DNA of 64,000 bases from Vicinamibacteria bacterium (lineage in GTDB: Bacteria; Acidobacteriota; Vicinamibacteria; Marinacidobacterales; Marinacidobacteraceae): contig CAXXLQ010000004.1 of NCBI GenBank assembly GCA_963668695.2, positions 3,360,001-3,424,000 of the forward strand, written 5' to 3'. This document shows positions 3,112-57,845 of this stretch, piece by piece (positions within the stretch are counted from its first letter, which is position 1; the number at the start of each line of letters is the position of its first letter). Position numbers and translations under genes: made by a program. The notes beneath the pieces are model-generated. The model was not told the origin of the DNA. It saw nothing but the letters and a program-made list of their open reading frames with translations, and made no database searches.

Positions 3112-3225
3112 CAGCCTGTGGTGGAACCCGGGTGAGCGCCGAGAGCGGCCAGTTCTCCCGGTGGGGGGGCGGTTCAGGCGGGATGGATCGCCGCTCAAAC
3201 GCCGCCTGGGTTTCACCACAGGCTG
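3112..3225 (-). mobile_element. MITE family A, short copy
   Basis: Terminal inverted repeats CAGCCTGTGGTGGAACCC / GGGTTTCACCACAGGCTG; flanks CTAA / TTAA; abuts the upstream TAA stop. Confidence 0.85.
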
Positions 3226-3799
3226 TTAACCCTAGGTCGAGCGTTCCGGAAGGGGGGCATGCCTCCGGGATGGCGGTACGAGAGGGCCAACGCTATTCCC
3301 CTCTCCACCCCAATCACCCTTAGCGACGCGTCTCCCAACGCGCGCTTTCCAAACCCCCTCACGGCGTAGATCCAACACACATCGCCACTTATCACCAGAG
3401 AGCGCCGGCCTTCGGCCCGCACGGCGGCCCGTAGGCAAGGGACCGCCGACCTCCCGGCAGTCGCTGTGAAAGTGCAGATCTGCGGGAACCCAGACCACCC
3501 GGATGGCGCGCGACAGCGGAGCGCGAAACGCGCGCCGATGACGTTGCGCCATTCCAAGGTGAGGGCCGTGCCTTTTTCATGACAGGCGAGAGTGTGCCGG
3601 AGGACCCGATCATGAAGGTGTCTCCCGGTGGGGCCCGGCACAGCCCGCCGCAGGCGGGCGACCGGTGCCCGCAGGGCAGCGAAGCCTCGGCACCTACCCT
3701 CGCGGTTAGCGACAGCAGAAGCGCACAGTCCCTACCACCCTCACCTCGCCGGGCAGGCCAGCGCCACCCTCGTTGAAGCCGATCCCCGCCAGCGCGCCG

Positions 3800-5326
3800 C
3801 TACGCGATCCAGTCGAAACTCCGCTCGACGGCCTTCCTCCAGGTGACGAGCCGCGCTGCCCGATCCGCGTCGTCGATCGTGGGTTCGAAGCGGGCATCCT
3901 CTTCGAGCGCTCCCGCCAGCTCGGTCTCGGAATCCCAAAACCCGATGGCGAGACCCGCGGCAACGGCCGCTCCCAGAGCCGTGGTTTCAACGCACCGGGG
4001 ACGCACCACCGGTATCCCCAGAATGTCCGCCTGGAACGCAAGCAGGAGTGCGCTGACGGTCATGCCGCCGTCCACCCGGAGCTCCTCGGGCGCCTGGCCG
4101 GTGTCGAGGCGCATCGCCTCGAGGACCTCCCAGACCTGGAACGCGGAGGCTTCGATGGCGGCGCGGGCCAAATGGCGCCGGTCGGTGTGCCGGGTCAATC
4201 CGCAGATCACCCCTCGCGCGTCGGCGCGCCACCAGGGAGCGAAGAGCCCGGAAAACGCCGGGACGATCACGGCTCCCCCCGAATCCTCCACCTCGAGCGC
4301 CAACGCCTCGACCTCAGCCGCGGACTGCGCGAACCCCAGTTGGTCCCGGAGCCACTGGACCAGCGAGCCGGCCACCGCAACGGCTCCCTCCAGGGCGTAG
4401 TCCACCCTTTCCGAATCGCTGTAGGCGACCGTGGTCAGCAGACCGGCCTTCGACTGGATCGCTTTCCCCCCGGTGTGCATCAACAAGAAAGCGCCGGTGC
4501 CGTAGGTGCATTTGGCCTCGCCGGGCCGGCGCCGTAACTGACCAAGGAGGGCCGCCTGCTGGTCTCCAATCACCCCGGTGATCGGCACCCTGGCGCCGAA
4601 AGGGCCGCCGGAGCTCGTGTGGCCCCACGCTTCCGGGTGGGAAGAGGGAGCGATTTCCGGGAGCATCCGGCCTGGCACCCCGAGCGCATCGAGCAGTTCG
4701 TCGCTCCAGCGCAGTTCCCCAAGATCCATCATCAGGGTCCGGCTGGCGTTGGTCGCATCGGTGCGGTGCACCGCGCCCCCGGTGAGCTTCCAGACGAGCC
4801 AGGATTCCACGGTGCCGAAGACGGCGCGTCCCGCGTTCGCGCGCTCCCGGAGGCCTTCCTGATTCTCGAGAAGCCAGCGGAGCTTCGGACCCGAGAAGTA
4901 GGTGGCCGCGGGAAGTCCCGTCAGTTCGCGAAGGCGCCCGGCGCCGATCGTGCGTTCCAGATCCGCCGCGAGTCCGGCGGTACGGGTGTCCTGCCAGACG
5001 ATCGCCGGAGCGAGGGGCTCGCCCGTTGCCGGATCCCACACCACGGTGGTCTCCCGCTGGTTCGTGATTCCTACCGCCGCGACGTCGCTCCCTTCGAGCC
5101 CACCGTTGTTGAGTGCTCCGGCGACCACCTCGGCGGTCCGGTCCCATATCTCGACCGGATCGTGTTCCACCCAACCCGGACGCGGTGTGATCTGCCGGTG
5201 CTCCCGCTGCGCCGAGCCCACGACGGCGCCATCTCGTGCGAAGAGGAGACAGCGGCTGCTGGTGGTGCCCTGGTCGATCGCGGCCACCACCCGAGGCCGC
5301 AACCCCCCGGCCGCCGAGGCGGTCAA
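3800..5326 (-). CDS. glpK: Glycerol kinase
   Basis: AIDQGTTSSR, GITNQRETT, IVWQDTRT, GDQQAAL, KCTYGTG, PAFSGLFAPWW. Confidence 0.97.
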   Translation of the reverse strand: MTASAAGGLRPRVVAAIDQGTTSSRCLLFARDGAVVGSAQREHRQITPRPGWVEHDPVEIWDRTAEVVAGALNNGGLEGSDVAAVGITNQRETTVVWDPATGEPLAPAIVWQDTRTAGLAADLERTIGAGRLRELTGLPAATYFSGPKLRWLLENQEGLRERANAGRAVFGTVESWLVWKLTGGAVHRTDATNASRTLMMDLGELRWSDELLDALGVPGRMLPEIAPSSHPEAWGHTSSGGPFGARVPITGVIGDQQAALLGQLRRRPGEAKCTYGTGAFLLMHTGGKAIQSKAGLLTTVAYSDSERVDYALEGAVAVAGSLVQWLRDQLGFAQSAAEVEALALEVEDSGGAVIVPAFSGLFAPWWRADARGVICGLTRHTDRRHLARAAIEASAFQVWEVLEAMRLDTGQAPEELRVDGGMTVSALLLAFQADILGIPVVRPRCVETTALGAAVAAGLAIGFWDSETELAGALEEDARFEPTIDDADRAARLVTWRKAVERSFDWIA

Positions 5327-6903
5327 GGAATATTCAGCCGCAACGCGCGCCCGGGCCTCGCCCCGGTCACTTCCCCGTCCTGGAGGACGAAGACTCCGGA
5401 GACCAGCACGTGGTGCGCACCGGTGGAGTAGTGGTGGGGATCGCCGAATTCGGCGTGGTCCTCCACGGCCGCGGGGTCGAGGACGGCGATGTCGGCGATG
5501 AACCCTTCCTCGATGACACCCCGGCCGTCGAGGCTGAGCCGTTCGGCTGGAAATGACGACATCTTGCGGACCGCCTCCTCGAGAGACAGAAGGCCCGCCT
5601 CGCGCACGTAGAGGCTCAGCACCCGCGAGAAGGTGGCGTAGTTGCGCGGGTGGGGCACCCCCTCCCCGGGCGCCACCACGCCCCCGTCGGAGGAGATCAT
5701 CGTGCGGGGATGGGCCATGATCCGGCGCACGTCGTCCTCGTGCATGGCGTGGAAGACGCCGCCGAAACCGCCCTTTTCCTGCAACTCGAGCGCCAGGGTC
5801 GCTCCGTTGTCGGTGTTCGACTCAAGGCCCCGCTCCCGCAGGATGTCGCCCATGCTCTTGCCCTCGAGCGAGGGGTCCCATTCACAACTGGCGATCTGCA
5901 CGTTGTCGGGGCTCCCGCCCCCCCGGTCCACTTCCAGATTGTTCTTGATCGCCTCGCGGATCCGTTCCCGCTGCTCCGGATCCTGGAGCCGCTCCAGGAG
6001 CGCCTCGTTCCCGCCGGCGAGGCTCCATCCGGGGAACAGGATGGTCAGTCCGGTGGACGATGCCGTGTAGGGGTACTGGTCGATCGTCACGTCCACGCCG
6101 CGCGCGACCGCCTCGTCCACGAGGCGCAGGCTCTCGGTGCTCTGACCCCACATCGGGGCGCCGACCACCTTGTGGTGGGTGATCTGGGTCGGGAGCCCTC
6201 CTTCTTCTCCGATGCGGATCGTCTCGCGCACCGAATCCATCAACGTGAGCCCCTCTTCCCGCATGTGGCTGACGTGAATGCCGCCGTAGCGGGCCGCGAC
6301 CTTGGCCAGCTCGATGACCTCCTCGGTCTCGGCGAAGGTCCCCGGTGGGTACTTGAGGCCGGTGGAGAGTCCGTAGGCGCCTTCCTGCATCGCCTGGTCC
6401 ACCAGCGCGCGCATCTCGTCGAGTTCCGCATCGGTGGGCGCACGGTCTTCGAGGCCGACCACTTCGCGGCGGATCGTGCCGTGTCCGACCATCAGCCCCA
6501 TGTTGATCGCCGCGCCCTCGGCTTCGAATTGCGCGAGCCACTCGCCGATCGGCAGCGGCGAGCCCCCATCCGGACCGCCCATGGCCGTGGTCACCCCCTG
6601 GCGGAGGTAGTTCTCGGCGAGGGGATGGCGGAGCACCCCTCGGACGGCGTGGCTGTGGAGGTCCACGAAACCGGGCACCACCGCGAGTCCCGACACGTCC
6701 ACTCTCGTCTCGGCACGGGCTCCGGAAAGATCACCCACCGTCGCCACCCGGTCGCCCCGGATCCCGACGTCCGCAATCTGGGGGGCTCCGCCCCGGCCGT
6801 CATGAACTTCGCCGCCGGTGAGCACCACGTCGTAGGGCTCCCCGCAACCGGCGGCCACCGCCGCCGTCAGCAAGAGCAGGAGTCGCATTGCGCGTTGGGC
6901 CAT
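5323..6903 (-). CDS. N-acyl-D-amino-acid deacylase (amidohydrolase family), probable lipoprotein
   Basis: PGFVDLHSH, SHMREE, DQYPYTASST, PHPRNYATF; lipobox-like AAGC; start may instead be 6921. Confidence 0.88.
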   Translation of the reverse strand: MAQRAMRLLLLLTAAVAAGCGEPYDVVLTGGEVHDGRGGAPQIADVGIRGDRVATVGDLSGARAETRVDVSGLAVVPGFVDLHSHAVRGVLRHPLAENYLRQGVTTAMGGPDGGSPLPIGEWLAQFEAEGAAINMGLMVGHGTIRREVVGLEDRAPTDAELDEMRALVDQAMQEGAYGLSTGLKYPPGTFAETEEVIELAKVAARYGGIHVSHMREEGLTLMDSVRETIRIGEEGGLPTQITHHKVVGAPMWGQSTESLRLVDEAVARGVDVTIDQYPYTASSTGLTILFPGWSLAGGNEALLERLQDPEQRERIREAIKNNLEVDRGGGSPDNVQIASCEWDPSLEGKSMGDILRERGLESNTDNGATLALELQEKGGFGGVFHAMHEDDVRRIMAHPRTMISSDGGVVAPGEGVPHPRNYATFSRVLSLYVREAGLLSLEEAVRKMSSFPAERLSLDGRGVIEEGFIADIAVLDPAAVEDHAEFGDPHHYSTGAHHVLVSGVFVLQDGEVTGARPGRALRLNIP

Positions 6904-7036
6904 TGAGTCTTCCTCCGCCATTCCGTTAGAAGTCGTTTCTCCGGAACGGGCCGCAACCGAGTCTATCGGTATGCTGACCGCCTCGGTCCCGCGCCTCCAT
7001 CATGGGCCCTGGCGGGGACCGACAAGGAGAACTCGC

Positions 7037-8929
7037 ATGCGCTGGAACCGGAATTCAACAGCCTGTGACAAAACCCACGCGGCCCAGTTCTCCCGGTGGG
7101 GGCTCGACGGGCGATCCATCCCGGCCAGACAGCCGGTAGTGAAACCCACGCGGCCCAGTTCTCCCGGTGGGGGCTCGGCCGGCGATCCATCCCGGCTGAA
7201 CCGCGTCGCTTCGCGCCGCTCATCGTTGCGTTTCGGTCGGAATACACCCGGGCCAGTTCTCCCGGTGGGGGCTCCTCCCTCACGCGCCTTGCCAGCCGGG
7301 CCCCCACCGGGAGGACTGGCCCCACCGGGAGAACTGGGCCTCGCCCCCACCGGGAGACTGGCCAGCCTCGGCGCTCACGTAGGTTCCACCACCGGCTGTT
7401 CACCGCCCCGCTTCGCGGCGCTCTGCGTTGCGTTTCGGTCGAAATACACCCGGCCCAGTTCTCCCGGTGGGGGCTCCTCCCTCACGCGCCTTGTCAGCCG
7501 GGCCCCCACCGGGAGGACTGGCCCCACCGGGAGAACTGGGCCTCGCCCGTCTCGGCGCTCACGTGGGTTTCACCACAGGCTATTAGTCATCCCCGTCCTC
7601 CTGACCGCTCTCATCCTGCCGGTGATCGCGGCCGGGCAGCCAGCCCCCACCGTTCTTCCCATGCGGGACCGGGCGGCGCTCATCGACCGCTGGCTCGAGG
7701 TGCGGTTCGAGACCGTGCTGCCGGAAATCATGCGGCGCGACGGCGTGGACATGTGGATCGTTGCGGCGAGGGAATACAACGAGGATCCGGTCATCCGGAC
7801 GATGCTCCCCTACACCTGGCTCGCGGCCCGGCGCCGCACCGTGCTCCTGTTCTTCGACCGCGGTCCGGAGGAGGGCGTCGAGCGGCTCGCGGTGGCCCGG
7901 TACGACATCGGAGGCATCCCGGGCGCCTGGGATCCCGAAACCGAACCCGATCAGTGGGCCCGGGTCGCCGAACTGGTCCGTGAGCGGAATCCCAACGTGA
8001 TTGCAGTGAACCGTTCGTCGGATTTCGGGCTGGCTGACGGGATCACCGCCACCGAATACGAGGCGCTCGGGGAGGCGCTCGGGCCTGAATTGTCACAGCG
8101 GGTAACCAGCGCCGAGACGCTGGCCATCGCCTGGCTCGAAACCCGGACTCCGGAGGAGATGGCGGTCTATCCCGCCGTCGTCCGCCTCGCCCGCTCCATC
8201 CTCTCCGAGGGCCTGTCGGAAAAGGCGATCCAGCCGGGCGTCACCACCACCCAGGATCTCTCCTGGTGGTACCGCGAGCGGATCCGCGAACTCAAACTCC
8301 AGACCTGGTTCCAGCCGGGCGTTTCGGTGCAGCGTCGCGAGGGAGCGATGTTCGGTGGCGACGCGGGAGACCAGGGCGATTTCTCTTCACGCCCCCCTCC
8401 GGACACCATCATGCCCGGCGACCTGCTGCACGTGGACTTCGGGATTACCTATCTCCGGCTCAACACGGATACCCAGATGCACGCCTACGTGCTGCGCCAC
8501 GGCGAAACGGCGGCCCCGGCGGGACTCAGTGAAGCGCTTTCCACCGGAAACCGGCTCCAGGACATCCTCACCGACGAATTCGTCACCGGCCGCACAGGAA
8601 ACGAAATCCTCGCGGCGGCGCTCGCCCAGGCGAAGAGCGAGGGCATCACTGCCTCGATCTACACCCACCCGATCGGCTTCCACGGCCACGCGGCCGGGCC
8701 CACGATCGGGCTGTGGGATCGCCAGGAAGGTGTGCCCGGCAAGGGTGACTATCCACTCTTTCCGATGACCGCGCACTCCATCGAGCTGAACGCCCGGGTC
8801 GCGGTGCCCGAGTGGGACGGCCAGGAGGTCCGGATCGCGCTGGAGGAGGACGCCATCTTCGACGGCGAATCCACGACGTATATCGATCCCCGGATGGAAC
8901 GCCTGCTGCTGATCCCCCGCCCGCGCTAG
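7037..8929 (+). CDS. M24 family (Xaa-Pro) aminopeptidase with an in-frame MITE in its signal peptide
   Basis: AAGGAG SD before ATG 7037; LLHVDFG..NTDTQ, THPIGFHGH, SIELN, LEED metal-site motifs. Confidence 0.85.
   Translation: MRWNRNSTACDKTHAAQFSRWGLDGRSIPARQPVVKPTRPSSPGGGSAGDPSRLNRVASRRSSLRFGRNTPGPVLPVGAPPSRALPAGPPPGGLAPPGELGLAPTGRLASLGAHVGSTTGCSPPRFAALCVAFRSKYTRPSSPGGGSSLTRLVSRAPTGRTGPTGRTGPRPSRRSRGFHHRLLVIPVLLTALILPVIAAGQPAPTVLPMRDRAALIDRWLEVRFETVLPEIMRRDGVDMWIVAAREYNEDPVIRTMLPYTWLAARRRTVLLFFDRGPEEGVERLAVARYDIGGIPGAWDPETEPDQWARVAELVRERNPNVIAVNRSSDFGLADGITATEYEALGEALGPELSQRVTSAETLAIAWLETRTPEEMAVYPAVVRLARSILSEGLSEKAIQPGVTTTQDLSWWYRERIRELKLQTWFQPGVSVQRREGAMFGGDAGDQGDFSSRPPPDTIMPGDLLHVDFGITYLRLNTDTQMHAYVLRHGETAAPAGLSEALSTGNRLQDILTDEFVTGRTGNEILAAALAQAKSEGITASIYTHPIGFHGHAAGPTIGLWDRQEGVPGKGDYPLFPMTAHSIELNARVAVPEWDGQEVRIALEEDAIFDGESTTYIDPRMERLLLIPRPR
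7059..7582 (+). mobile_element. MITE family A, composite copy (2 left arms, 2 right arms)
   Basis: Ends CAGCCTGTG / CACCACAGGCTA; flanks TCAA / TTAG; shares blocks with 11103-12024 and 57630-57845. Confidence 0.88.
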
Positions 8930-8975
8930 GTAGGAGCGCCGGGCAGTCCTCCCGGTGGGGCCGTTCACACCGGCA
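8930..8975 (+). repeat. REP-like family B element carrying an 18-nt module variant
   Basis: GTAGGAGCGCCGG-[GCAGTCCTCCCGGTGGGG]-CCGTTCACACCGGC immediately after the stop codon. Confidence 0.6.
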
Positions 8976-9084
8976 TCGCGGCCAAAGGCCGCGAAACTCC
9001 CATCTCCAACCGAGCAGAAGCGCGCGGACGGCCTGGCGCGCCGGTACTCCGATCGGCATCGCCCACGCAGCAGGCGAAACTGCC

Positions 9085-9302
9085 TCAGCCTCTCAGCAAC
9101 AGCGTGGTGACCAGCGTCGTCAGTGTCCCAACCATCGTCCCGAGCAACAGGAACAAGAAGGTCCAGATCCGACCCAACTGCTTTTCCACCGCGTCAAGCC
9201 GGGCATTGACTGCCGTCAATCCCGTCTGAAATTGGGCGGTCTGTTCCGCCGCAGTACGCGAATCAGCGCCGTGAGCTGCTGGACCGCAGTTTGCCCGGCC
9301 AT
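9085..9302 (-). pseudogene. Small coiled-coil protein with C-terminal membrane helix, frameshifted near 9250
   Basis: GGAG then ATG 9302 gives MAGQTAVQQLTALIRVL; another frame continues EQTAQFQTGLTAVNARLDAVEKQLGRIWTFLFLLLGTMVGTLTTLVTTLLLRG-stop. Confidence 0.5.
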
Positions 9303-9602
9303 GGACTCGATCTCCCGAACCGGGGTTAGACCTGTCCAGCGTCCCGATTTCCCGTCACCAGCAAGCGAAACAGCGCGCCCGATTCGGGCGGCGCATCCGA
9401 TTTGCCTTGGGCTCCTTCACTCTGTACGCCCGGCATGGAAGCTCCTTTGCGCCACAAATCCGGCGCGGATTGGCCGTGTCCGCTGCAGGGACGCGAACCG
9501 GGTTCCTACCTGTCATAGACGGAAACCGGGCGGGAAAATTCTCACCCGACTGAAAAAAGGTCTCCAAGCGGCCGCCCGGCACCGTGACATCCTTGCCGCC
9601 CC

Positions 9603-10958
9603 ATGACCGCCGTTCTCCTCGGCACCCTCTTCGTAGCGGTTTCGATCGGCGTCCTGCGCCTGCATCCGTTCCTCGCGCTGACGCTCGGGGCGATCCTCGC
9701 GGGGTCGCTCGGCCCCTCGGAAGCGTCCGGCCCGGAGCGTGTCTACGCGGCGCTCGAAGCGACCGGCGGCGCGTTCGGCGACCTCGTCGGAGCCATCGGA
9801 ATCGCCATCGCTCTCGCGGCGGTTATCGGGGACTGCCTCCTCCGGAGCGGGGCCGCCGACCGGATTGCGGGGGCACTACTCGGCGTCTTCGGGGAACGCC
9901 GGGCCGTGTGGGCGCTGGCGGCGGCGGCCTACGTGCTGTCGATCCCGGTGTTCTTCGACACCGTGTTCTTCCTGCTCATCCCCCTGGCCCGCGCACTCGC
10001 CCGACGCGCCCCCGGCCGCTACCCGATGTTCGTGATGGCGATCTGCGCCGGCGCCATCGCCACCCACTCCCTCGTACCGCCAACCCCGGGTCCACTTGGA
10101 ATGGCGGACACCCTCCAGCTCGACCTGGGGACCGCTATCGGGTTCGGACTGCTGCTCGGGATCCTGCCGGTCACCGCGGCACTCGTGACCGCACCGCTGT
10201 TCGCGCGGGGGATGAAGGTCGAACCGGACAACGAAGAAATCCCCAATTCCGATCCACCGGAAAACAGCGGAGCCGGCCCCGGTCTGTTTGCCTCCGTGTT
10301 TCCTATCGCGCTGCCGGTGGTTCTCATGAGCGGGGCCTCGGCGGTCTCTGCCGGCGCCGAGGGGGCGATTCCGGGCGCTGCCTGGCTGGCGGTCCTCGGA
10401 CACCGGAACGCGGCGCTCTTCCTGGCAGCGTTCGCCGCTGCTTTCGTGCTCTGGAGAACTCGCCGCCTTGCGGTGCGGCAGCTTCTCGGCTCCTTTGGCG
10501 GAGCGATCGGTGAAGCCGGTCCCATCATCCTGATCACCGCCGCCGGCGGGGCATTCGGGCGCGCCCTGGCCGGAACGGATGTCGTAGAGGCGCTGGTTGG
10601 GATCTCATCCGCCGCCAATGGAACCGTGCTGTTGCTGCTGGCGGCCGGCATCGCTTCCCTGCTCAAGCTGGCGCAGGGTTCGGGGACGGTCGCAATCCTG
10701 ACCGGGTCGGCGATCGTGGCTTCCCTGCTACCGGAGCTGGACGCCCTCGCCTTCCACCCCGGCTATCTCTTCGCGGCGGTGGGATTTGGCTCGATGGCCG
10801 CATCCTGGATGAACGACAGCGGGTTCTGGGTGGTGGGACGGATGTCCGGATTCAGCGAGGGCGAGACCTTCCGCACCTGGACGGCGGTCGCCGCCGCGGT
10901 CGGAATCTTCGGCCTGATCCAGGTGCTGGTGCTGGCCACCCTCTTCCCGCTTGTCTGA
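9603..10958 (+). CDS. GntP family permease
   Basis: Polytopic membrane protein; SIPVFFDT, HSLVPPTPGP, LAQGSGTVA, SWMNDSGFW. Confidence 0.92.
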   Translation: MTAVLLGTLFVAVSIGVLRLHPFLALTLGAILAGSLGPSEASGPERVYAALEATGGAFGDLVGAIGIAIALAAVIGDCLLRSGAADRIAGALLGVFGERRAVWALAAAAYVLSIPVFFDTVFFLLIPLARALARRAPGRYPMFVMAICAGAIATHSLVPPTPGPLGMADTLQLDLGTAIGFGLLLGILPVTAALVTAPLFARGMKVEPDNEEIPNSDPPENSGAGPGLFASVFPIALPVVLMSGASAVSAGAEGAIPGAAWLAVLGHRNAALFLAAFAAAFVLWRTRRLAVRQLLGSFGGAIGEAGPIILITAAGGAFGRALAGTDVVEALVGISSAANGTVLLLLAAGIASLLKLAQGSGTVAILTGSAIVASLLPELDALAFHPGYLFAAVGFGSMAASWMNDSGFWVVGRMSGFSEGETFRTWTAVAAAVGIFGLIQVLVLATLFPLV

Positions 10959-11102
10959 CGGGGGGCGCTCACCTGCACTCCATGTCTCATCTGCACTTGC
11001 GGATCGACACCGACCGGCGCCGATCCGCGCTCAAGGTCCGCCTCCAGGGAGCCGTCTCGAACGCCGTGTCGCGAAAGCCCTCGATGGTCACTCCGGGCTT
11101 AA

Positions 11103-12024
11103 CAGCCTGTAGTGAAACCCACGCGGCGTTCGAGCGGCGATCCATCCCGACTAAACGACCGGTGATGAAACCCACGCGGCGTTCGGCCGGCGATCCATCC
11201 CGGCCAAACAACCGGTGATGAAACCCACGCGGCGTTCGGCCGGCGATCCATCCCGGCCAAACAACCGGTGATGAAACCCACGCGGCGTTCGGCCGGCGAT
11301 CCATCCCGGCCAAACAACCGGTGATGAAACCCACGCGGCGTTCGGCCGGCGATCCATCCCGGCCAAACAACCGGTGATGAAACCCACGCGGCGTTCGGCC
11401 GGCGATCCATCCCGGCTGACCGCGTCGCTTCGCGCCGCTCATCGTTGCGTTTCAGTCGGAATACACCCGGGCCAGTTCTCCCGGTGGGGGCTCCTCCCTC
11501 ACGCGCCTTGTCAGCCGGGCCCCCACCGGGAGGACTGGCCCCACCGGGAGAACTGGGCCTCGCCCCCACCGGGAGGACTGGCCGGCCTCGGCGCTCACCC
11601 GGGTTCCACCACCGGCTGTTCACCGCGTCGCTTCGCGCCGCTCATCGTTGCGTTTCGGTCGGAATACACCCGGGCCAGTTCTCCCGGTGGGGGCTCCTCC
11701 CTCACGCGCCTTGTCAGCCGGGCCCCCACCGGGAGGACTGGCCCCACCGGGAGAACTGGGCCTCGCCCCCACCGGGAGGACTGGCCGGCCTCGGCGCTCA
11801 CCCGGGTTCCACCACCGGCTGTTCACCGCGTCGCTTCGCGCCGCTCATCGTTGCGTTTCGGTCGGAATACACCCGGGCCAGTTCTCCCGGTGGGGGCTCC
11901 TCCCTCACGCGCCTTGTCAGCCGGGCCCCCACCGGGAGGACTGGCCCCACCGGGAGAACTGGGCCTCGCCCCCACCGGGAGGACTGGCCAGCCTCGGCGC
12001 TCACCCGGGTTCCACCACCGGCTG
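11103..12024 (+). mobile_element. MITE family A, expanded copy (6 x 53-bp left arms, 3 x 203-bp right arms)
   Basis: GAAACCC recurs at 11114, 11167, 11220, 11273, 11326, 11379; right units start at 11420, 11623, 11826; flanks TTAA / TTGA. Confidence 0.92.
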
Positions 12025-12246
12025 TTGAGAATCGGGAAGCCTGCCACGTACCGGCAACCGCACCGGGTCAACCGGTCGTTCCGGCCTTCGGGTTTCGGCG
12101 CGCTCCGGCCAAATAGGCTTCCCGGGCGGCCTTCTCCTGGGTCGCATCTTCCCGTTTGGCTGGCTGGATCCGCAGGCGCTTACGCTGCCCGACCAATCCC
12201 TCGGAGACTCTCGCCCTCGCGCCGACTTCCACCAAGGACTTAGCCT

Positions 12247-25836: not shown

Positions 25837-25990
25837 CAGGGAACGCCGGTGCCGGCTTCCGACTGGCAGTGTGGCGCGAAGGCTGGGAACGCCGATCTTC
25901 AGACCGGCACCCGCGGCGCGCAGCGCCGCGGAATCCCGTAGAGCGACCCATCCGATGGCGCGAGAGCGGGAACGCCGACCTCCGGCCCAC
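25837..25990 (+). repeat. Cluster of REP-like family B elements without the 18-nt module
   Basis: Three GGGAACGCCG-initiated units, e.g. CTGGGAACGCCGATCTTCAGACCGGC and GGGAACGCCGACCTCCGGCCC. Confidence 0.6.
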
Positions 25991-26092
25991 ACCACCCCGC
26001 AAAGCGGAGCGAAACGCCCAGTGCGAGTAAGGCAGAGTGCGTAGCTCGTTCTATCCCGTTGGCCAACTCCTGATCAATCCAATCAACACCCC

Positions 26093-30648: not shown

Positions 30649-30707
30649 CGGGCGCGCGTGGCGCCGTCCCCCAACCAGGACCGCCATTCACCCAAATCGC
30701 GCCGCTG

Positions 30708-30752
30708 GGCTGGGAACGCCGGCCAGTTCTCCCGGTGGGGGCTTCACACCGT
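30708..30752 (+). repeat. REP-like family B element with the 18-nt module
   Basis: CTGGGAACGCCGG-[CCAGTTCTCCCGGTGGGG]-GCTTCACACCG. Confidence 0.7.
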
Positions 30753-30860
30753 TCCGCGGCGCGAGCGCCGCAAAACGGTGTCGAGCTACCCGTCCCCGAT
30801 GGCCCGCGAGCGCCGGAATGCCGGTTCGAGCCGGCGTCCCCTGCGCCGCAGCCCGCGACG

Positions 30861-34972: not shown

Positions 34973-35149
34973 GGGACGCATTGTGCGGCTCCCGGTCCGG
35001 CGAGGCAACGGTGATCGGGCCGCAGACCGTGCGCCTTGTGCGATCGACGGGCTCCCCGTCGCGTGTCAGTGAGTGTTTTTTCGGGGCGAAAGGGCAGACT
35101 GGCCGCCAGGGGCGGACGCGTCGTGGGACGATTGTCAATTACGGCCGTC

Positions 35150-36025
35150 ATGCACAGCGGACAAAGAAAGCGGGCCTCGACGGCAGACCTCGCCGCCGCC
35201 GCCCGCGCCCGGCATCAGCGGGACCGGGTGCGGCTGGTGGACGATCCCTATGCCTTGTCCCTCACCAGCCCTTCGCTGCAGCGGGTCCTTCGCTTTCGGC
35301 CGGCCGCCTGGTTCATGGCGAACTGGGCGCTGCGGGGCCTGAAACCCGTCATCCTCGGATTGTTCATCCGGGCCCGCTACGCGGAACAGGCGGTAGAGGC
35401 GGCCTTCCGGGAAGGCATCCGCCAGTACGTGATCGTCGGCGCCGGACTGGATTCTTTCGCGCTGCGCCGGACCGACCTCGTCCCGCCGCTCCGGGTGTTC
35501 GAGACCGACCGCCCCCATATGCAGGAGGTGAAATTGGAACGCCTCCGGAGCGCCGGGATTCCCCTGCCCTCGGGACTCCACTTCGTCCCGGCCGATCTGG
35601 AACGGGTTTCGGTGATGGATGCCCTGGCGGACTCATCATTCGATCGAGAGAGCCCGGTGATCCTGTCCTTCCTCGGGGTGACCTACTACCTGACTCCGGA
35701 AACGCTCGCGGAGTCCGCCCGGTCCATCGCCGCCGGCGTCGTCCCCGGCTCGCGCCTCGTCCTCGACTACATGCTCGACGAAGCGTCGGCCTGGCCCGAG
35801 CACCGCAGGATGCGGGACCAGCTTGAGGACTACGTGGCCAAACGCGGGGAGCCCATGAAGAGCGAATACAGCGTTGCGGCGATGAGCGAACTGCTGGCGG
35901 ACGCGGGCTTTCGCACTATGGAGGGCGTCACCATGATGGAATTGGCGGAGCGCTACGCCGGGGAACTCGGCCCCCTGCCGTTTGAGACGCCGGGGCTCTT
36001 CGCCTGCGGGCTGTTCGAGAAGTAG
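35150..36025 (+). CDS. SAM-dependent methyltransferase (leucine carboxyl methyltransferase-like)
   Basis: STA..AAAARA, DPYA, QYVIVGAGLDS, FVPADL, LGVTYYL. Confidence 0.9.
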   Translation: MHSGQRKRASTADLAAAARARHQRDRVRLVDDPYALSLTSPSLQRVLRFRPAAWFMANWALRGLKPVILGLFIRARYAEQAVEAAFREGIRQYVIVGAGLDSFALRRTDLVPPLRVFETDRPHMQEVKLERLRSAGIPLPSGLHFVPADLERVSVMDALADSSFDRESPVILSFLGVTYYLTPETLAESARSIAAGVVPGSRLVLDYMLDEASAWPEHRRMRDQLEDYVAKRGEPMKSEYSVAAMSELLADAGFRTMEGVTMMELAERYAGELGPLPFETPGLFACGLFEK

Positions 36026-36084
36026 CCGCAGGCCGCGCTCGTTCTCGATCAGCAGTGCGAGTTTCGCTGCGCTGGCGCGCAGCG

Positions 36085-36136
36085 GTGCCGGTTTGAGGGC
36101 CCCCACCGGGAGAACTGGCGGAGGTCGGCGTCCCGA
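36085..36136 (-). repeat. REP-like family B element with the 18-nt module
   Basis: Minus strand CGGGACGCCGACCTCCG-[18-mer]-GCCCTCAAACCGGC, between convergent genes. Confidence 0.65.
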
Positions 36137-36206
36137 TGCGTTCCGTTCTTGCCGCGGGTCGGCGGAGTGAGTTCCGCCCGCTCCGCGGGCGGCGGCGCTC
36201 CTTCCC

Positions 36207-44500: not shown

Positions 44501-45836
44501 CGCACCGGGGCTCGCCGACCGGCTGGCGATCCCCGAGACGACGGTCCAGGCAGCGCTCCAGCTTCTGGAGGCCGAGGGAGTGGTGCTTCAGGGGCGTTTT
44601 TCACACCCCCCGGCGGAAACAGGACCGGTCGAGTGGTGCCACCGGCGGGTGCTGGCCCGCGTCCACCGCCTCACCCTCGCGCGGCTCCGCCGCGAGTCGG
44701 CGCCGGTCAGCGCCGCCGCCTTCCTCGACTTCCTGGCCGGGTGGCAGCACGCGACGGCCGAGACCCGGCTCCACGGGCCGCGCGGGGTCCGGGAGGTGAT
44801 CGCCCAGTTACAGGGGCTCGAAGCGCCGGCGGCGGCCTGGGAGTCACAGATCCTGCCGCTGCGGATCGCCGGATATCGCCGCGACTGGCTCGACGAGAAC
44901 TGCCTTTCGGGCGAGGTGGTGTGGGGACGGACATCCCTTCCGGAAACGTCCCCGAACGGGAGCGCGGCGGCTCGGCTCCCGGCGCGGCCGACCCGAGCGG
45001 CCCCGATCGGACTGCTCCTCCGAAGTGAACTCGGCCGTTGGCTTCGACGCCGGGAGGAGGACCGCGCGGACCGCTCTTCGGCGGCGGGCAAGGTCCTGAA
45101 ACTCCTCGAAGAGGGCGGAGCGCAGTTCTTCGCCGAACTCCAGGCGCGCTCCGGGTTATTGCCCGCGGCCCTCGAGGACGCGCTCTGGGAACTGACCGCC
45201 GGCGGGCGGGTAACCGCGGACGGTTTCGACAACCTGCGCGCGCTCATGGACCCGCGGCGGCGAAGCGCCTACGGGCGTTACCGAAGGCGGAAGGCGCGCT
45301 ACTCGCCGGGCCGCTGGGCGCTCCTGGCGGCGCCCGCTGACGAGGGGGGAGAACCGACCGATCACGAAGCGGTCGCCCGCCAACTCCTCCGGCGCTGGGG
45401 GGTGGTGTTCCGCGACCTGCTGAAGCGGGAGCGGATCGAATCGCGCTGGCGCGACCTCCAACTCGTCCTGCGGCGGCTGGAGATGCGGGGCGAGGTGGTC
45501 GGCGGGCGGTTCGTCACGACCTTCGCCGGAGAGCAGTTCGCCCTGCCCGAGGCCGTTGCCCCACTGCGCCGCGCCGGTCGGGACGGGGGCGAGCCGGGGC
45601 CGAGGCTGACCATCGGCGCCGCCGATCCGCTCAACCTGTCCGGGATCCTGATTCCCGGCCCGCGCGTTCCTGTCACATCGTCGGAGAACCTGGTGCTGCA
45701 AGGGGGCGCCCTGACCCCGGCGGGCAGGGGCCCCATCCACGCGGACTACACCCCGAGCGCACCGTCCGGCCCTCCCGGCTCCGCACCACCATTCGCCAAC
45801 CACGCGGGCCTTCCGCATCCACTCAGCGAGCCTTAA
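41502..45836 (+). CDS. lhr: Lhr family SF2 helicase (long form)
   Basis: PTGSGKT, VSPLKAL, DEIH, GLSAT, HHGSL, LELGIDIG, QRVGRSGH, PFWRGE, GEQFA. Confidence 0.93.
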   Translation: MREQEPAFEEPPLTSLLSRFDPAVAGWFRERFEAPTEPQAKGWPAIARGEDVLITAPTGSGKTLAAFLFALDRLTREARVGPLADETRVVYVSPLKALSADIRRNLEIPLAGIAARAAAAGDPLPALRAELRTGDTPAAQRARMTRKPPHILVTTPESLYLLLTAARGRELLSTADTVIVDEIHALARDKRGSHLALSLERLDRIAGRRLQRIGLSATVRPISEVAGFLSPRTPGGPTVIDVGHRRELDLAVEIPDSELGAVASHEIMEDIRDRIATLIEEHDTTLVFVNTRRMAERLTHDLGERLPAGAVLAHHGSLARELRLEAERRLQTGEVRAIVATASLELGIDIGSVNLVCQLGSPRSIAVALQRVGRSGHWLGATPKGRFFPTTRDELVECAALVAAMESGDLDRIRIPQAPLDILAQQLVAETGATPEQRHDLDQLFDFVRCAYPYRQLERTVFDDLVAMLSEGIATARGRRGAYLHRDTVSGTVRARRGARLAAIQSGGAIPETAQYQVVAEPDDRIVGQLDEDFAIESYRGDVFLLGTTAWRIRRIAEGQVRVEDAQGAAPTIPFWRGEAPGRTPELSVRVAELRERVDESLPEKARVELSAASHLDGAGADQLIRYLAAGRAALGAMPSQRTVVAERFFDESGGMQLVIHAPFGSRINRAWGLALRKRFCRSFNLELQAAATDDGIVISLTDLHSFPLESVFSFLKPATLEPVLTQAVLGVPLFFVRWRWAASRALAVPRRRSGKRVPPPIQRMLTDDLLAAVFPDQAACAENLAGEVRIPKHPLVDEAIADCLHEALDLEGLRKLLENIRSGRVRTVAVDTPEASPFAAEILNANPFAFLDPAPLEERRARAVRMRRSLPPELDSEAVLDPEAIEQAAAEAAPPVRDADELHDALLTLGAMRETPEWAGWFAELETGRRATAFSASGGRLWVAVERLGIARAVWARAVWPDAPPPAAGPTESSGVPDTRAAAAAAILRGVMDSSGPMTAPGLADRLAIPETTVQAALQLLEAEGVVLQGRFSHPPAETGPVEWCHRRVLARVHRLTLARLRRESAPVSAAAFLDFLAGWQHATAETRLHGPRGVREVIAQLQGLEAPAAAWESQILPLRIAGYRRDWLDENCLSGEVVWGRTSLPETSPNGSAAARLPARPTRAAPIGLLLRSELGRWLRRREEDRADRSSAAGKVLKLLEEGGAQFFAELQARSGLLPAALEDALWELTAGGRVTADGFDNLRALMDPRRRSAYGRYRRRKARYSPGRWALLAAPADEGGEPTDHEAVARQLLRRWGVVFRDLLKRERIESRWRDLQLVLRRLEMRGEVVGGRFVTTFAGEQFALPEAVAPLRRAGRDGGEPGPRLTIGAADPLNLSGILIPGPRVPVTSSENLVLQGGALTPAGRGPIHADYTPSAPSGPPGSAPPFANHAGLPHPLSEP

Positions 45837-46496: not shown

Positions 46497-46545
46497 CCCA
46501 TCGCGATCCGGCGCCCGCTGATGAGTTGACTGCTACCCTGCGTGG

Positions 46546-48230: not shown

Positions 48231-51200
48231 AGGACCGGAACCAGGAACAGCGTGACCAGGGTGGCGAAAGCGACCCCGCAAGCCAGCGAAACCGCCATCG
48301 GAATGAGCAACGCGGCCTGGTAGCTCCGCTCCAGCAGCAGCGGGGTCACCCCGGCGCAGGTGGTCAGCGAGGTAATGACGATGGCCCGGAAGCGCGCTGG
48401 TCCGGACGCAAGCGCCGCTTCCCGTGCCGAAAGACCCCGAGTTCGGCTCTTGTTGCTGAAATCGAGCATCACGAGAGCATCGTTGACCACGATCCCAATG
48501 AGCGGCGCCATTCCGAAAAAGCTCATCAGATCCAGATTGATTCCCATGATGAAGTGCCCGTACACCGCCCCGGCTAGCCCGAACGGGATCGCGGCCAGGA
48601 TGACGAACGGCTGGGTCCACGAACCGAGCGGTACGGCGAGCAACACAAAGATGAGCATCACGGCCAGGAGCCCGCTGCGTGCGAGGGCCCCCTGGCTTTC
48701 CTCTGCCTCTCCGGCCACCCCGGTGATCCCGAAGTCGTATCCCGCAAAGCGCTCGCGGAGTTCGGGAAACACTCCATTGCGGGCGCCCGCGATGACGGCG
48801 TCGGGAGTCGCAACGCGGCCGTCAACACTGGCGAGAACGGTGACAGCCCGCGATGAATCCACCCGGCGGATGACGGATTGTCCGCTCGCCCGGGAGACCT
48901 CAGCGATCTCGCCAAGCGAGGTCACGCGGCCGTCCGGCCGGCGTACCGGCAGTTCCGCCATTCCCGGAACACCCCCGGAATCGGCCCGCGGGTAGCGGAG
49001 GACGACCCGAATCTCGTCGCGGCCCCGGTGGTACCGCGCAATCTCCTCGCCATGAAACGCCTGCCGGAGCTGGCGGCCCACCATCCCGGCATCGATTCCG
49101 GTTCCGGCTCCTCCGGGTCGAACCCGAGCCACCAGTCCCGGCGCCATTCCCTCGAAATCGTCGAGAACGAGCGTCACTCCCGGGATTTCCCCGAGCCCGG
49201 CCTGGAGCGCCTCCGACGCCGCCACCAGCCCATCGAAGTCGGGACCGCGGATCCTGATGGACACATCCGCCGGCTGGCCGAACGCATCGCTGATCACGGA
49301 CACCTCGGCGTCCAGCGGCTCCGACCGAACATGCTCCCGCACCCGATCCGCAACGCTACGGGTCGACAACCCCGCGCGGTCCTCCTGGGGGCTGAGACGC
49401 CACACGATCTGGCCTATCGCCGCCCCCACCCCACCGGACTGCCCACCGAACGACTCCCCGACACCGATCGGGAAACGCTGTCCCACCAGAACCACCCGGT
49501 GGCGCTGCACGTCCCCCCCGGATTCCTCAAGGATTTCTTCGCGCACCTCGTCCACCGCGACGTTTAGCGAGGCAATGACCTTGCGGGTGGCGTCCGAAGT
49601 CGCCGACGCCGGCAGCGTGACCTGCAGGATGACGATGTTGTTGTCCATGGGCGAGTTCGTCACCACCGGCACCCAACCCCCCGCCGTCAAACCGAAGGCG
49701 AGGGACAGCGCGAAGACGCCCGCCGCCAGCGTCGCGAGCCGGTTACTGAGCGCCCACCGCAGCGCTGGCCGGTAGACCATCGCCACGATCCAGTCGAAAC
49801 CCGACTGGACCGTGCCGCGGATCCGGGCGAGTCGGCGGCTCGGACGCACGGCCAAGCCGCCGTGCGCCAGGTGATGCGGGAGGATCAGGGCGGCTTCCAG
49901 GAGGGAGAACGCCAAAATGGGAAGCACCATGCGCGGCACGTCGCCGATCAGTTCGCCGTAAACGCCCGGAATTCCAAGGAGCGGGGCAAACGCGGCCATC
50001 GTGGTCAGCACGCCGAACGCCGCCGGGAAGAAGACCCGCCGGGTGCCCCGAATAGCTGCCTCTTCCACGTTCTCGCCGCCGCCCTCCATCCGTCGCTGAA
50101 CGTTTTCGCCGACCACGATCGCATCGTCCACCACGATGCCGAGGGCCATGATGAACCCGAACATGCTGATCAGGTTCACCGTGACCCCGAGCCAGGGCAT
50201 CAACAGGAAGGCGCCGAAGAAGGGTGAACGGAAGTCCGGCGGCAGTCCAGACCGCAAGGCGGGTCGAGAGAGTGAAGAAGAGAACCAGGAAGATGAGACC
50301 CAGACCGGAAATCCCGTTCCGGATCATGAGGTCCAGACGGTCCTGGAAGTCCTCGGACGCGAAGTACCAGGGCGTCGCCTGGATGCCTTCCGGAAGCTGG
50401 ATTCCCCGGATGACTTCGCGCGCCCTCTCGGTGGTCTCCGCAAGCCGGCCGCTTTCTCTGAGGCTCACGGTCAGGAATACCGCGGGTTCGCCGTCCATCC
50501 AGGCTTCCCGATCCGCCGCATCCAGGCCGTCGGTCACGATCCCCACCTCAGCCAGGCGGGCAGTTCCGCCACCCGGGACCGCAATGAGCGGGATCCGCCC
50601 GAAGTCTTCAGCGTTAATCGCGGCCCCTTCGGTTCTCAGGCTGAGCTCGTGCGAGCCGCTGCGCGCCGTTCCGGCAGGAATCTCCGCGGAACCCGACCGC
50701 ACGGCAGCCGCCACCCGATCGAAAGTCAGCCCGAAGCGCGTCAGGTTCTCCTCGGGGATCTCGATCGTCAGTTCCCGGTCCCACCCGGTCAGGCGCTCCA
50801 CACTGGATACCCCGCGAACTGCGGCGACGGCATCCTGGACCCTGCGGGCCGCCTCGTGAAGGTCCCGTTCGCCGGCTACCCCGTGCACGGCGATCCGGAA
50901 GATCTCCCGGTTCTCGGCGATTTCGGATACCACGGGATCCTCCGCCTCGGCCGGGAGGGTGGTGAGCGATCCCACGCGCTCGCGCACCCGGTCCCCGATG
51001 CGGCGGATGTCCGCCCCGGCTTCCAGAACGAGCGTCAGCGCCGCGGCCTCATCCACGGCGAGGCCGGTCGTTTCGCGAACGCCCTCAATCCCCCGGAGCG
51101 CTTCTTCCAGCAGGAGCAGCACGCGCGATTCGACCACTTCGGCTTCGGCTCCCGGCAACACGACCCGCACCACGACGGCGGGGGAAGACGTCTCCGGAAG

Positions 51201-51344
51201 GAGTTCGTGCGGAACTCCGCCGAGGGCGATGTAGCCGGCCAGACAGACCCCGAAGAAGATCAGGTTCGCAGCGACCCGGTTCCGCACGAATCAGGCGATC
51301 ACTCCGGTGGAACGACCGCTGCCAGCGGCGGTGGTTTGAACCAT
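48098..51344 (-). pseudogene. AcrB-like RND efflux permease, disrupted
   Basis: In-frame TGA at 51291-51293 (IA*FVRNRVAANL); frameshift near 50222; LGIVVDDAIVVGEN, GIVVNDA, RFRAI..TSLTT. Confidence 0.88.
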
Positions 51345-51351
51345 GGGGCCG

Positions 51352-52542
51352 CTAGCAGCCCGACCCGGGAGGTCCCTCACCGGCCGCCCCGCGCGCTTCC
51401 ATGACCCGCACCCGCATCCCTTCGGCGACCATCGAAGGAGGAGAGATCACGAGCCGCTCCCCATCCGCGAGACCGGAGCGCACCCAGAGAGCGGCATCGC
51501 CGGCCGGCCAGAAAGCGTCCACCTCGCGAACCCGGATCCGGTCCTCGGCGTCCACGATGAGGACGGTGCCGTCAGCGCGGAACGCGCTCCGCGGCACCAC
51601 CGCCACCTCCGCGAACTCCTTTCCCTCGATCTCGACCCGCACGAACATGCCTGCCACCAGCGGCGGCCGGCCATCAGCAGTTTCCCGGTAAGGGTGGGGC
51701 ACTTCGATCACCGCGGGAAAGAACCGGGTCGCCGGATCCACTTCACCCTCCATCCGGGTGAGTCGCCCTTCCCAGGTCCACCGTTCAGCCGCCGTCGGTG
51801 GGCCGAGGGTCGCCGTCACGCGCGCCGCAGGCCCCGGTCCAACCGCTCCCCGAAACGGCAGATCCACAAGGGGAAGGGCCGCGTCCGGCAGCGAAACGCG
51901 CACCTCGGACACGTCCAGAGAAAGCAACTCCAGAAGCGGCGCGCCGGGGGTGACACATTCTCCAACCTCGGCGTTCCGAGAGGCAATCAGACCGGCATGC
52001 GGAGCCAGGATCTCCGTGTTCTTCAGATCCTCCTCGGCTCGTTCGAGCGCCGCCCGGGCGGCGCTGGCTGCCTCTTCGGCCGCCGCCAGTTGCGGGAGCC
52101 GAAGCGCCAGGGGATCGGGGGCCATCCCCGCCCCGTCCCATTCCGACCGAGCCAGGTCCGCACCTGCCCGCTCCCTCAGCACCCGCAGTTCCGCCTCGGC
52201 AGCGGCGCTCCGCGCCTGCGCGAGAGCCTGCTCGTAGGGAGCGCGCCGGATCCGGAACAGGGGAGCTTCCGCGGCAACCTGCGCCCCGATTCGGAGAGCG
52301 TCCGCCGCCTAGATCACCTCTCCGGCCGTCTGGGCGGAGACGGTGGTCCGCTTCGCCGGGCGGGCGGTGCCGTCGGCGCTGACCACGACCCGATGCGCCC
52401 CCAGTTCCACCGTCTGCACGTGGACCTCCGTCAGGGGCGTCTCGATTTCCTGCGCCTCCGGCTCCGGCCCGAGAGCTACCAGGATCGCGACGGTCGCAAC
52501 GGATAGCAGCAGGATCGGAACGAAGAGAAAGCGTCGAAGCAT
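51352..52542 (-). pseudogene. RND membrane-fusion (periplasmic adaptor) protein, disrupted
   Basis: In-frame TAG at 52309-52311; EILAPHAGLI, VDPATR, GMFVRVEI, GL..GERLV. Confidence 0.85.
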
Positions 52543-52773
52543 CAGCGCGACCTCATTGGGACCCCGTCCGCACGACCGCTCCCCAGATCATGCGAATCAG
52601 GCCGCTGGCTGCCCCCATGACGGAAGCAGAGTGTATTGCCAAGCGGAAGCCGCCGATCGGTTCATGGGGACGCGGGCTGGCTGCGGTGCGCACGCGCGGA
52701 CGGGACCGGACGACCGCCGTCTACTGTTCCGTCGAACTCAGCCGCCGATGTCATCCCTGCACCACCCCGGAGA

Positions 52774-55245: not shown

Positions 55246-55341
55246 GAGGCTCTCGACTCTTGATCGGGGCCGCCGGCTGCGTGGTCGGAATTCCCGCCCC
55301 GGAGGCGGGGATTCCCGCGCCTCCGGAAGGGGGTCAGAGCG

Positions 55342-57426: not shown

Positions 57427-57629
57427 CTGGAACCTCCAGTGATTGGGGAAGCGGCTAATCGTAAGGCTTTCCACGGCCGGTTGGCATCGCCGAAGCGAGG
57501 CGAACATGCGGAACGGCGGCCTCTGGCCGGCACGGTCGCCTGCAAGGGACCAAATCAGCGCCAAGACCCCCGAAAACCACGGGTGTCCACCTGCTACGTC
57601 CGCGGATGTTGGAGCGTTCCATGGGCTAG

Positions 57630-57845
57630 CAGCCTGTGGTGAAACCCAGGCGGCGTTCGAGCGGCGATCCATCCCGGCTGAACCACTCCGCTTCGCTCCG
57701 TTCTGCGTTGCGTTTCGGTCGAAATACACCCGGGCCAGTTCTCCCGGTGGGGGCTCCTCCCTCACGCGCCTTGTCAGCCGGGCGCCTCGCCCCCACCGGG
57801 AGAACTGGCCGCTCTCGGCGCTCACCCGGATCCCACCACAGGCTG
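57630..57845 (+). mobile_element. MITE family A, unit-length copy (216 bp)
   Basis: CAGCCTGTGGTG / CACCACAGGCTG ends with CTAG on both sides; the right CTAG is the upstream gene's stop. Confidence 0.92.

Follow-up and report, generated by a model that had tools for sequence, protein, structure and literature searches.

What is an 18-nt sequence that recurs inside other repeats, filling some of their copies and missing from others? The window analysed here, 64,000 nt of a Vicinamibacteria bacterium, corresponds to C4:3360001-3424000 of the source genome, G000 (4.10 Mb, 67.5% GC, four contigs, C1-C4), and it raises this question through the 18-mer CCAGTTCTCCCGGTGGGG, which we call M and which measures 20 nt with its trailing GC. 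M exists as an abundant module, follows a recurrent rule at its junctions, has inserted independently at unique sites and turns over fast. It is best described as a kind of very small mobile repeat with a two-tier dynamic. From the comparison of sequences we lean, with modest confidence, towards the reading that M stands at the core of a non-autonomous mobile module of very small size, one inserted de novo on rare occasions with the help of a trans-acting factor and frequently passed on among existing repeats.

The original prediction had counted by hand about 27 copies of M in the window, in both orientations, each full copy within a repeat element. Searching both strands gave 17 exact matches (shuffle expectation 0.00) and 26 with up to three mismatches (expectation 0.15), to which a degenerate 17-nt copy at 7345-7361 is additional, so that the manual count was accurate; each copy in the window does lie inside a repeat element. 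A genome-wide count, which the prediction had proposed, returned 1288 exact copies in 4.1 Mb (648 forward, 640 reverse) and 1631 with up to two mismatches; a variant, CCAGTCCTCCCGGTGGGG, is present in 156 copies. Six-frame translation of M is free of stops (PVLPVG, QFSRW, SSPGG, PHRENW, PTGRT, PPGEL) and direct reading finds no terminal repeats, both as first described; at 18-20 nt the module is too small to be an insertion sequence (IS) or a miniature inverted-repeat transposable element (MITE).

It is hardly credible that M comes from an adapter, from an error of assembly or from chance, and we found no point in favour of this. Shuffled windows contain 0 copies as against the 17 observed, M occurs in 22 of 28 assemblies from different sources, and orthologous genes in two or three species have kept it in frame. 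Joints of filled and empty forms were also present in contigs of other public runs. In four such runs compared with window positions 2500-10900, whose Logan short contigs are broken at repeats and pool all copies, the joints 7503>7540 (skipping 36 nt) and 7501>7540 were found; empty forms of paralogous copies therefore exist in those runs, and these joints say nothing specific to one locus.

That M inserts is seen in conserved genes with unique flanks. The ORF (open reading frame) at window positions 41502-45836 encodes an Lhr helicase with DEAD, Helicase_C, DEAD_assoc and three Lhr winged-helix domains. Its sequence CTGGCGG-CG-CCCGCTG in G000 is the ancestral one, the same as in outgroups, while G001, G004 and G008 carry CTGGCGG-M-GC-CCC.., which remains in frame and adds the residues SSPGGG; in an alignment of Lhr from 26 genomes of the family these three alone have M. 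Trees of the flanks (900 nt upstream and 470 nt downstream) place the empty G000 as sister to the filled G001, with support of 99/99 and 100/99, so that at least two changes of state must have occurred at the site; 0 of 200 bootstrap trees permit one. Such a pattern could possibly reflect recurrent gain at this position, a precise reversal, or recombination between lineages over a very short tract.

A second case is an RND pump gene of the AcrB type (C4:393139-396336), in which the complement of M lies in frame in G000 and G001 only, of 28 genomes. Read in the orientation of M, CATCCCG-CG-CGGGCTC has become CATCCCG-M-GC-CGGGCTC, and on each side the flanks have no more than ~3 nt in common with those of any other G000 copy. 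As the Lhr and RND flanks are unique, neither event is a conversion from a paralogous repeat; each is a true insertion without duplication. The claim of independent insertions is thus upheld, by the unrelated contexts and by unique coding sites whose empty state is found in outgroups, and a single ancestral acquisition, which the prediction had named as its possible refutation, is excluded. In G010, M also lies in a region that reads like coding sequence (locus L209, G010:C1:663285-663602), in the SSPGGG frame and with ..HISLTEETDVFLVAPATAHVI downstream; this may be a third coding insertion. Clear coding context is rare, applying to only ~3 of the 1631 copies in G000. In the Lhr helicase and the RND pump, M has added six-residue segments to proteins.

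The usual targets of M are GC-rich repeats that form hairpins. One is an IS5-like MITE with terminal inverted repeats (TIRs) CAGCCTGTGG/CCACAGGCTG and a 4-nt target duplication such as CTAG, whose core is present in 621 copies in G000 by BLAST. Within it M occupies site B in the left unit, A on the left of the core, C on the right of the core (with 0-3 copies) and E, one step beyond C. The MITE often forms composite arrays of tandem 53-nt left units and 203-nt core units. The other main host resembles a repetitive extragenic palindromic (REP) element and consists of the palindrome GGAGCGCCGGTCT-TC-AGACCGGCGCTCC, then a variable hairpin, then GAAAC; M stands directly after its GCCGG arm on either strand, with constant polarity to the arm. 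In the complete, low-copy genome G010, 10 of 15 copies of M occupy this position. The sites and elements of the window are as follows.

3149..3166, plus strand: M copy in context D (..AGAGCGG^M^GGGCGGTTCAGG), within a short MITE at 3112-3225
7059..7589, plus strand: composite IS5-like MITE of two left units and two cores, with M at B sites 7084 and 7155 and at A sites 7253 and 7455, M doublets at the C sites (7302-7337 and 7504-7539) and a decayed 17-nt copy at an E site (7345-7361)
8943..8960, plus strand: variant GCAGTCCTCCCGGTGGGG in a REP-like palindrome (GGAGCGCCGG^..^CCGTTCACACCGGCATCGC, then hairpin and GAAAC)
11103..12024, plus strand: MITE array of six left units with empty B (11120-11397) and three tandem cores, with A filled in all three (11472, 11675, 11878) and the C doublet and E filled in each (11521-11581, 11724-11784, 11927-11987)
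25891..25908, plus strand: REP-like hairpin without M (GCCGATCTTCAGACCGGC), the same kind of site as those at 30723 and 8943, but unfilled
30723..30740, plus strand: M in a diverged REP-like element (GGGAACGCCGG^M^GCTTCACACCG)
36101..36118, minus strand: M in a diverged REP-like element (GACCTCCG^M^GCCCTCAAACCGGCACCGC)
45324..45339, plus strand: ancestral empty site CTGGCGG-CG-CCCGCTG in the Lhr helicase ORF
57630..57845, plus strand: one MITE bounded by TIRs CAGCCTGTGG/CCACAGGCTG and flanked by a CTAG target duplication, with A filled (57735-57752), C empty (57775-57789) and E filled (57791-57808)
63880..64000, plus strand: MITE copy in the opposite orientation that runs past the window end, with E, C (63917-63931) and A (63949-63961) empty

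The four pairs of empty and filled sites on which the original prediction was built are all present. Site C, CAGCCGGGC^GCCTCG, is empty at 57775-57789 and 63917-63931 and holds two copies of M at 7302-7337, 7504-7539 and 11521-11556; site A, CACCCGG-TATT-CC, is empty at 63949-63961 and filled at 7253, 7455, 11472 and 57735; site B, CACGCGGC-GT-TCG, is empty six times between 11120 and 11397 and filled at 7084 and 7155; and the REP-like family is empty at ~25891-25908, filled at 30723 and 36101 and occupied by a variant at 8943.

Such comparisons were extended to the genome by a junction survey, in which empty twins in G000 were sought for 337 exact 9+9-nt contexts without an adjacent M. A twin was found for 151 of these, with a net difference of +18 in 106, +19 in 33, +17 in 7 and another value in 5. 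In the +18 class, the two bases 3' of the insertion point differ between the empty and the filled form in 98 of 106 contexts, and a clean insertion was seen in only 6-7. From empty to filled the changes were GT to GC (44), GC to GT (19), AT to GC (16) and GC to GG (6), followed by TG, TT, CG, AC or CT to GC in a few contexts each. The same rule recurs in a different genus, where GA is exchanged for M+GC at two sites (L122 versus L124), and again in the two insertions into unique coding DNA. M+GC is therefore the effective unit, and its 20 nt replace two, sometimes one, bases. Exceptions exist: context D reads M+GG, the single fill at C reads M+GT, and site A also alters the base before M.

Flanking sequences agree with this unit. 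Over 1287 copies in G000, G-G-S is conserved 5' of M and G-C 3' of it (G at +1 in 1122, C at +2 in 1120), bearing out the remark that GC usually follows the module. When flanks were classified, as had been proposed, M fell into 132 clusters, and the preference for a trailing GC survived counting one copy per cluster (-2 G in 100; -1 G in 93 or C in 36; +1 G in 100; +2 C in 99). Several simple models were rejected on these junctions. The prediction had suggested that M might be an excision scar; M is a fixed 18-mer conserved across genera, and the empty form differs from the filled form minus M in 98 of 106 net +18 contexts. Empty sites do not arise by simple deletion, another outcome that the prediction had set against itself, as the filled form lacks the bases of the empty junction (e.g. 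TAT for site A). A target duplication of GGC would require a net +20, of which none was seen, and correction of a quasi-palindrome between MITE arms fails on direct reading, the flanks of A and C not being complementary.

The distribution of M across genomes is equally marked. With at most one mismatch, M was found in 22 of 28 genomes of the family. All 15 genomes of genus g1 carry it, in 8 to 1566 copies; g15 has 70 copies, g4 17-259 and g2 7, and in g14 one of four genomes has one copy. Two genera of the family are free of M (g13, 0/1; g3, 0/2), as are all 12 genomes from two sister families. When species-representative genomes were scanned, at least 94 stretches with M came up, nearly all in Candidatus Marinacidobacterium or in Vicinamibacteria or Acidobacteria metagenome-assembled genomes (MAGs); among the matches listed, stray single ones fell in Georgenia, Pseudarthrobacter, a Gammaproteobacteria MAG and an Acidimicrobiaceae MAG. 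M belongs specifically to a single family of marine (sponge-type) Vicinamibacteria. Between genera with coding DNA only 72-80% identical the 18-mer has stayed exactly the same, and its spread through the family together with its absence from the sister families indicates that M is old, lineage-specific and conserved to the letter. The graded phyletic pattern, from 0 through ~10 and ~100 to ~1,500 copies per genome, makes a search for the responsible gene feasible.

Exact conservation across genera would also be anticipated if M were a recognition word (a DNA uptake sequence, for instance, or the binding site of a protein), raised in number by biased uptake and recombination or by selection and not by transposition. 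The equal strand counts (648 and 640), the frequent inverted pairs and the replacement of alleles at orthologous sites fit such a word. We nevertheless regard it as improbable: new copies of M arise as 18-nt insertions and not by point changes, they are clustered in MITEs and REP-like elements and not evenly spread, and only ~3 of 1631 are in clear coding context, whereas DNA uptake sequences are found in coding as well as non-coding DNA and originate by point change.

Under the mobile-module reading that we favour, the effective unit, CCAGTTCTCCCGGTGGGG followed by GC and usually preceded by GG or GC, would spread in two tiers. In the first, a rare de novo insertion, a copy would be written with fixed polarity directly after a G-rich end (..GG or ..GC), and M+GC would replace one or two target bases, for a net gain of 18 or sometimes 19 nt and no target duplication. 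The targets would lie mostly in or beside GC-rich hairpins, that is, the REP-like palindrome GGAGCGCCGG^TCTTCAGACCGGCGCTCC and the internal sites of the IS5-like MITE, and occasionally within an ORF, where 18 nt would be tolerated as six extra residues. In the second and frequent tier, filled and empty alleles would be exchanged among hundreds of paralogs by short-patch ectopic conversion and would also be carried along by MITE transposition; such exchange would produce near-combinatorial occupancy and differences between strains. We infer a trans-acting factor that recognises or templates the 18-mer from three observations: its letters are conserved exactly from genus to genus, one junction signature recurs in unrelated contexts as well as in a second genus, and the polarity to the hairpin arm is fixed.

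The second tier is drawn from the behaviour of M inside repeats. The orthologous composite MITE of G000 and G004 differs in M occupancy at six sites, each together with its junction bases, and elsewhere by scattered single-base differences; a search of sister genomes for 18-nt presence/absence polymorphism, as the prediction had proposed, is thereby answered. Contigs C1 and C3 are alternative haplotigs of C4, and of 65 M sites 6 differ in an alignment of 144,913 columns that has 730 mismatches, so that switches occur between strains 99.5% identical. These recent switches keep the junctions peculiar to each site: TAT versus G-M-GC at A, GC versus M-GT at C, and GT versus Mvar-GC for the second copy at C. 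For this reason, most variation between empty and filled sites in the MITE is more readily accounted for by exchange between paralogs than by fresh insertion. All 12 main combinations of A, C and E states occur among the 621 MITE cores (167, 53, 27, 8, 28, 18, 103, 66, 29, 27, 63 and 26), linkage is weak between A and C (odds ratio 2.4) and not significant between C and E, and at site A each of the four haplotypes of flanking single-nucleotide polymorphisms is found both filled and empty. The simplest reading would be that each type of site was filled once or a few times and that its alleles were then exchanged among paralogs by short-patch conversion and MITE transposition. Spread by recombination, which the prediction had held out as a refutation, would therefore hold in part, for most variation within the MITE, and fails as an account of one ancestral acquisition, given the insertions at unique sites.

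These data invite the question of whether dedicated machinery is needed at all. M might spread by microhomology-mediated template switching and short-patch ectopic gene conversion between GC-rich hairpin repeats, its sequence being kept by selection (for a hairpin with an inverted partner, or for binding of a host protein) or by constant homogenisation. The reproduction of site-specific junctions in recent switches and the combinatorial occupancy, with weak linkage between sites 31 nt apart, speak for this, and donors exist whose flanks match the filled Lhr site by 5+5 nt. The hairpins formed by M and its complement are very stable (dG -37.4 kcal/mol, z -6.0, for window 7240-7350), and an inverted partner lies within 200 nt of 411 of the 723 forward copies, most commonly with a spacer of 31 nt; in this way M turns hundreds of MITEs into long perfect hairpins. 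The lack of an enzyme match in G000, described below, points the same way. Random microhomology should, however, vary the length of the insert, whereas +18 was observed in 106 and +19 in 33 of 151 contexts. An identical 20-nt unit appears in unrelated contexts and in another genus, the RND site matches other copies in G000 by only ~3 nt on either side, and the 18-mer is unaltered between genera whose coding DNA has diverged by 20-28%. On balance we consider an origin without dedicated machinery a serious possibility, if an unlikely one.

Several observations weigh against a trans-acting factor and should be set beside those that suggest it. Only two or three de novo events in unique DNA are documented, and the 337 contexts of the junction survey are sub-variants of about ten host families and not independent events. 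One family of copies matches the filled Lhr site by 5 nt on each side (GGCGG-M-GCCCC), and copying guided by this microhomology could therefore explain the Lhr case without a dedicated enzyme. The junctions are not uniform, as context D, the single fill at C, site A and the 33 +19 contexts demonstrate, and hence are not the work of a strictly deterministic integrase. The orientation of M in G000 has no strand bias with respect to the direction of replication, so that a single-strand mechanism linked to the fork gains no support. Finally, no candidate enzyme was found in G000: Y1_Tnp, RVT_1 and Resolvase gave zero matches and TnpB-type proteins none over the cut-off.

The prediction had proposed that M might be written into hairpin DNA by an HUH/RAYT-like transposase or an RNA-templated polymerase, RAYT being the REP-associated tyrosine transposase. 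This was not borne out: in the whole of G000, which is 91.7% complete, Y1_Tnp/RAYT (PF01797) and the reverse transcriptase family RVT_1 both gave 0 matches. In controls, Y1_Tnp matched in 6 of 14 genomes, and the searches for RVT_1, for the serine recombinases of Resolvase and for TnpB-type proteins also gave matches. At a completeness of 91.7%, the absence of an enzyme is not proven. Seven DDE_Tnp_1 matches and one IS110 gene were found in G000, none linked to M, and self-BLAST of its long ORFs returned no multicopy transposase linked to M. The sole IS110 element (C4:~482150-483950, with a 428-aa ORF at 482336-483622) interrupts a REP-like hairpin (GCCGACCGGAGGTC, element, GGTCCGGCG) and adjoins two M-bearing REP-like units; its ends are unlike M. 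The prediction had advised looking for M copies beside RAYT, reverse transcriptase or IS110 genes; the first two have no match in G000, and for IS110 there is this one neighbour.

M might still be a REP or REPIN moved by a RAYT (HUH Y1), or a reverse transcriptase or IS110-type recombinase might write it as a module. Its high copy number, both orientations and frequent inverted pairs recall such systems, as do insertion into hairpins without duplication, like that of the Thermomicrobium roseum REPs in small palindromes (PMC3733652), and the place of the one IS110 element in the same family of REP-like hairpins. Apart from the zero counts for Y1_Tnp and RVT_1 with positive controls, and the unlike IS110 ends, M itself stands against this: it is not a palindrome, the 22-nt unit folding at dG -1.9 and -1.4 kcal/mol on the two strands (z +0.63 and +0.70), which sets it apart from REP-type units, imperfect palindromes of 20-40 nt that fold unaided, and direct reading of GG-CCAGTTCTCCCGGTGGGG-GC and its complement finds neither GTAG nor CGTC. 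We judge this group of explanations very improbable.

M occurs mostly singly; in its main forms, TT and TC, we counted 1161 singles, 134 head-to-tail doublets, 2 triplets, one run of 4 units and one of 5. In G018, of genus g4, the hosts differ, and M is found in 44-nt and 92-nt tandem units on other hairpins. At loci L123, L130 and L133 of this genome one or two 13-nt partial restarts (CCAGTTCTCCCGG) precede M and GGGGC repeats follow it. These forms look like stuttering on a short template; neither the 13-nt restart nor the GGGGC repeats has an instance in G000. They are among the features that would be explained if M were written de novo from a fixed internal template by a putative enzyme primed at a nicked 3' end (..GG) within GC-rich hairpins, the others being the constant 20-nt product, the replacement of 1-2 bases, the fixed polarity, the head-to-tail doublets and the recurrence at Lhr. 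Such writing strikes us as doubtful, and just as tentative is its likeness to telomerase, or to a spacer integrase that carries its own cargo. Were it true, M would represent a new class of mobile sequence, one that has no DNA donor.

Mobile DNA shorter than ~30 nt is, to our knowledge, hardly documented. The closest known things to M, compared by description and not by sequence, are the small dispersed repeats (SDRs) of cyanobacteria. In Genome Res 18:1484, Elhai et al. reportedly described SDR1-8 of Nostocaceae in 2008, SDR4-6 being said to share a predicted hairpin. Like SDRs, M is very short, below the size of MITEs, nested in repeats and minitransposons and without an encoded enzyme, and the mobility of both is deduced from otherwise identical sequences with and without the unit; M is indeed a dispersed unit of ~20 nt (18, or 20-22 with flanks) with precise presence and absence between near-identical sequences. 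SDRs are 21-27 nt long and nested in other repeats, SDR5 inserts precisely at a fixed place in the short GC-rich palindrome HIP1, and the mechanism was still discussed as open in 2015 and 2018 (PMC5861425, PMC4390886). M differs in being 18-20 nt, in occurring in Acidobacteriota and not in cyanobacteria, in its very high copy number, in lacking a hairpin of its own, in its in-frame presence in ORFs and in replacing 1-2 target bases instead of inserting cleanly. The bacterial family studied here offers a second, independent and far more abundant case of very small mobile DNA, with ~1,600 copies in G000.

Comparison with other repeats is less close. REPs and REPINs share with M the hundreds to thousands of copies, inverted doublets, a mostly extragenic and occasionally in-frame position and palindromic hosts (PMC3116915, PMC3733652); frequent inverted doublets, at 411 of 723, are a feature of M. 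REPs have a GTAG or CGTC tag at one end, and some of their families lie within small GC-rich palindromes (T. roseum) and in frame in ORFs (PMC3733652), whereas M has no such tag, is no palindrome and has no RAYT match in G000. MITEs are likewise non-autonomous, high in copy number and polymorphic between species; M, which has neither TIRs nor a target duplication, is far shorter, and here the MITE is its host. Rickettsia palindromic elements (RPEs) are palindromes of about 100-150 nt. Along with intragenic REPs they provide a precedent for short repeats in frame in functional genes, tolerated as extra peptide (PMC3733652), although M adds only 6 residues. A limited literature search, made on the genus name Marinacidobacterium, returned nothing, and M was not found described; no Rfam family reached its gathering score in the window.

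M generates regulatory, structural and protein variation in uncultivated bacteria associated with sponges. The system offers a sharp junction signature (20 nt replacing 1-2 nt after GG or GC), turnover at the level of strains and clean gains in conserved genes.

The hosts of M are themselves in motion. Individual MITE insertions are present or absent between species of the genus (window 57630-57845, 3112-3225, 7059-7589, 11103-12024 and 63880-64000): the MITE at 57630-57845 has a precise empty site in G001, G004 and G008, the composite at 7059-7589 is found in G004 but missing from G001, G008 and G009, and the array region at 11103-12024 is absent from G001 and G008. The REP-like family (window 25840-26000, 8933-8998, 30714-30775 and 36055-36140) also turns over fast from one species to another, and in low-copy genomes it is where M chiefly resides. 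The smaller contigs C1, C2 and C3 are no plasmids and represent alternative haplotigs of chromosome regions: C1 matches C4 at 99.3-99.9% (98.1% in one 2-kb high-scoring segment pair), C3 at 97.6-99.7% and C2 at 91.6%, the last corresponding to window 48655-52554. They probably account for the 9.3% 'contamination' figure of G000. Syntenic intergenic gaps between conserved genes differ from those of G001, G004, G008 and G009 by hundreds to thousands of bases (window 30640-30860, 35017-36200 and 8930-9450), an example being the gap at 30.7 kb, with 3.4 kb in G008 and 4.9 kb in G009.

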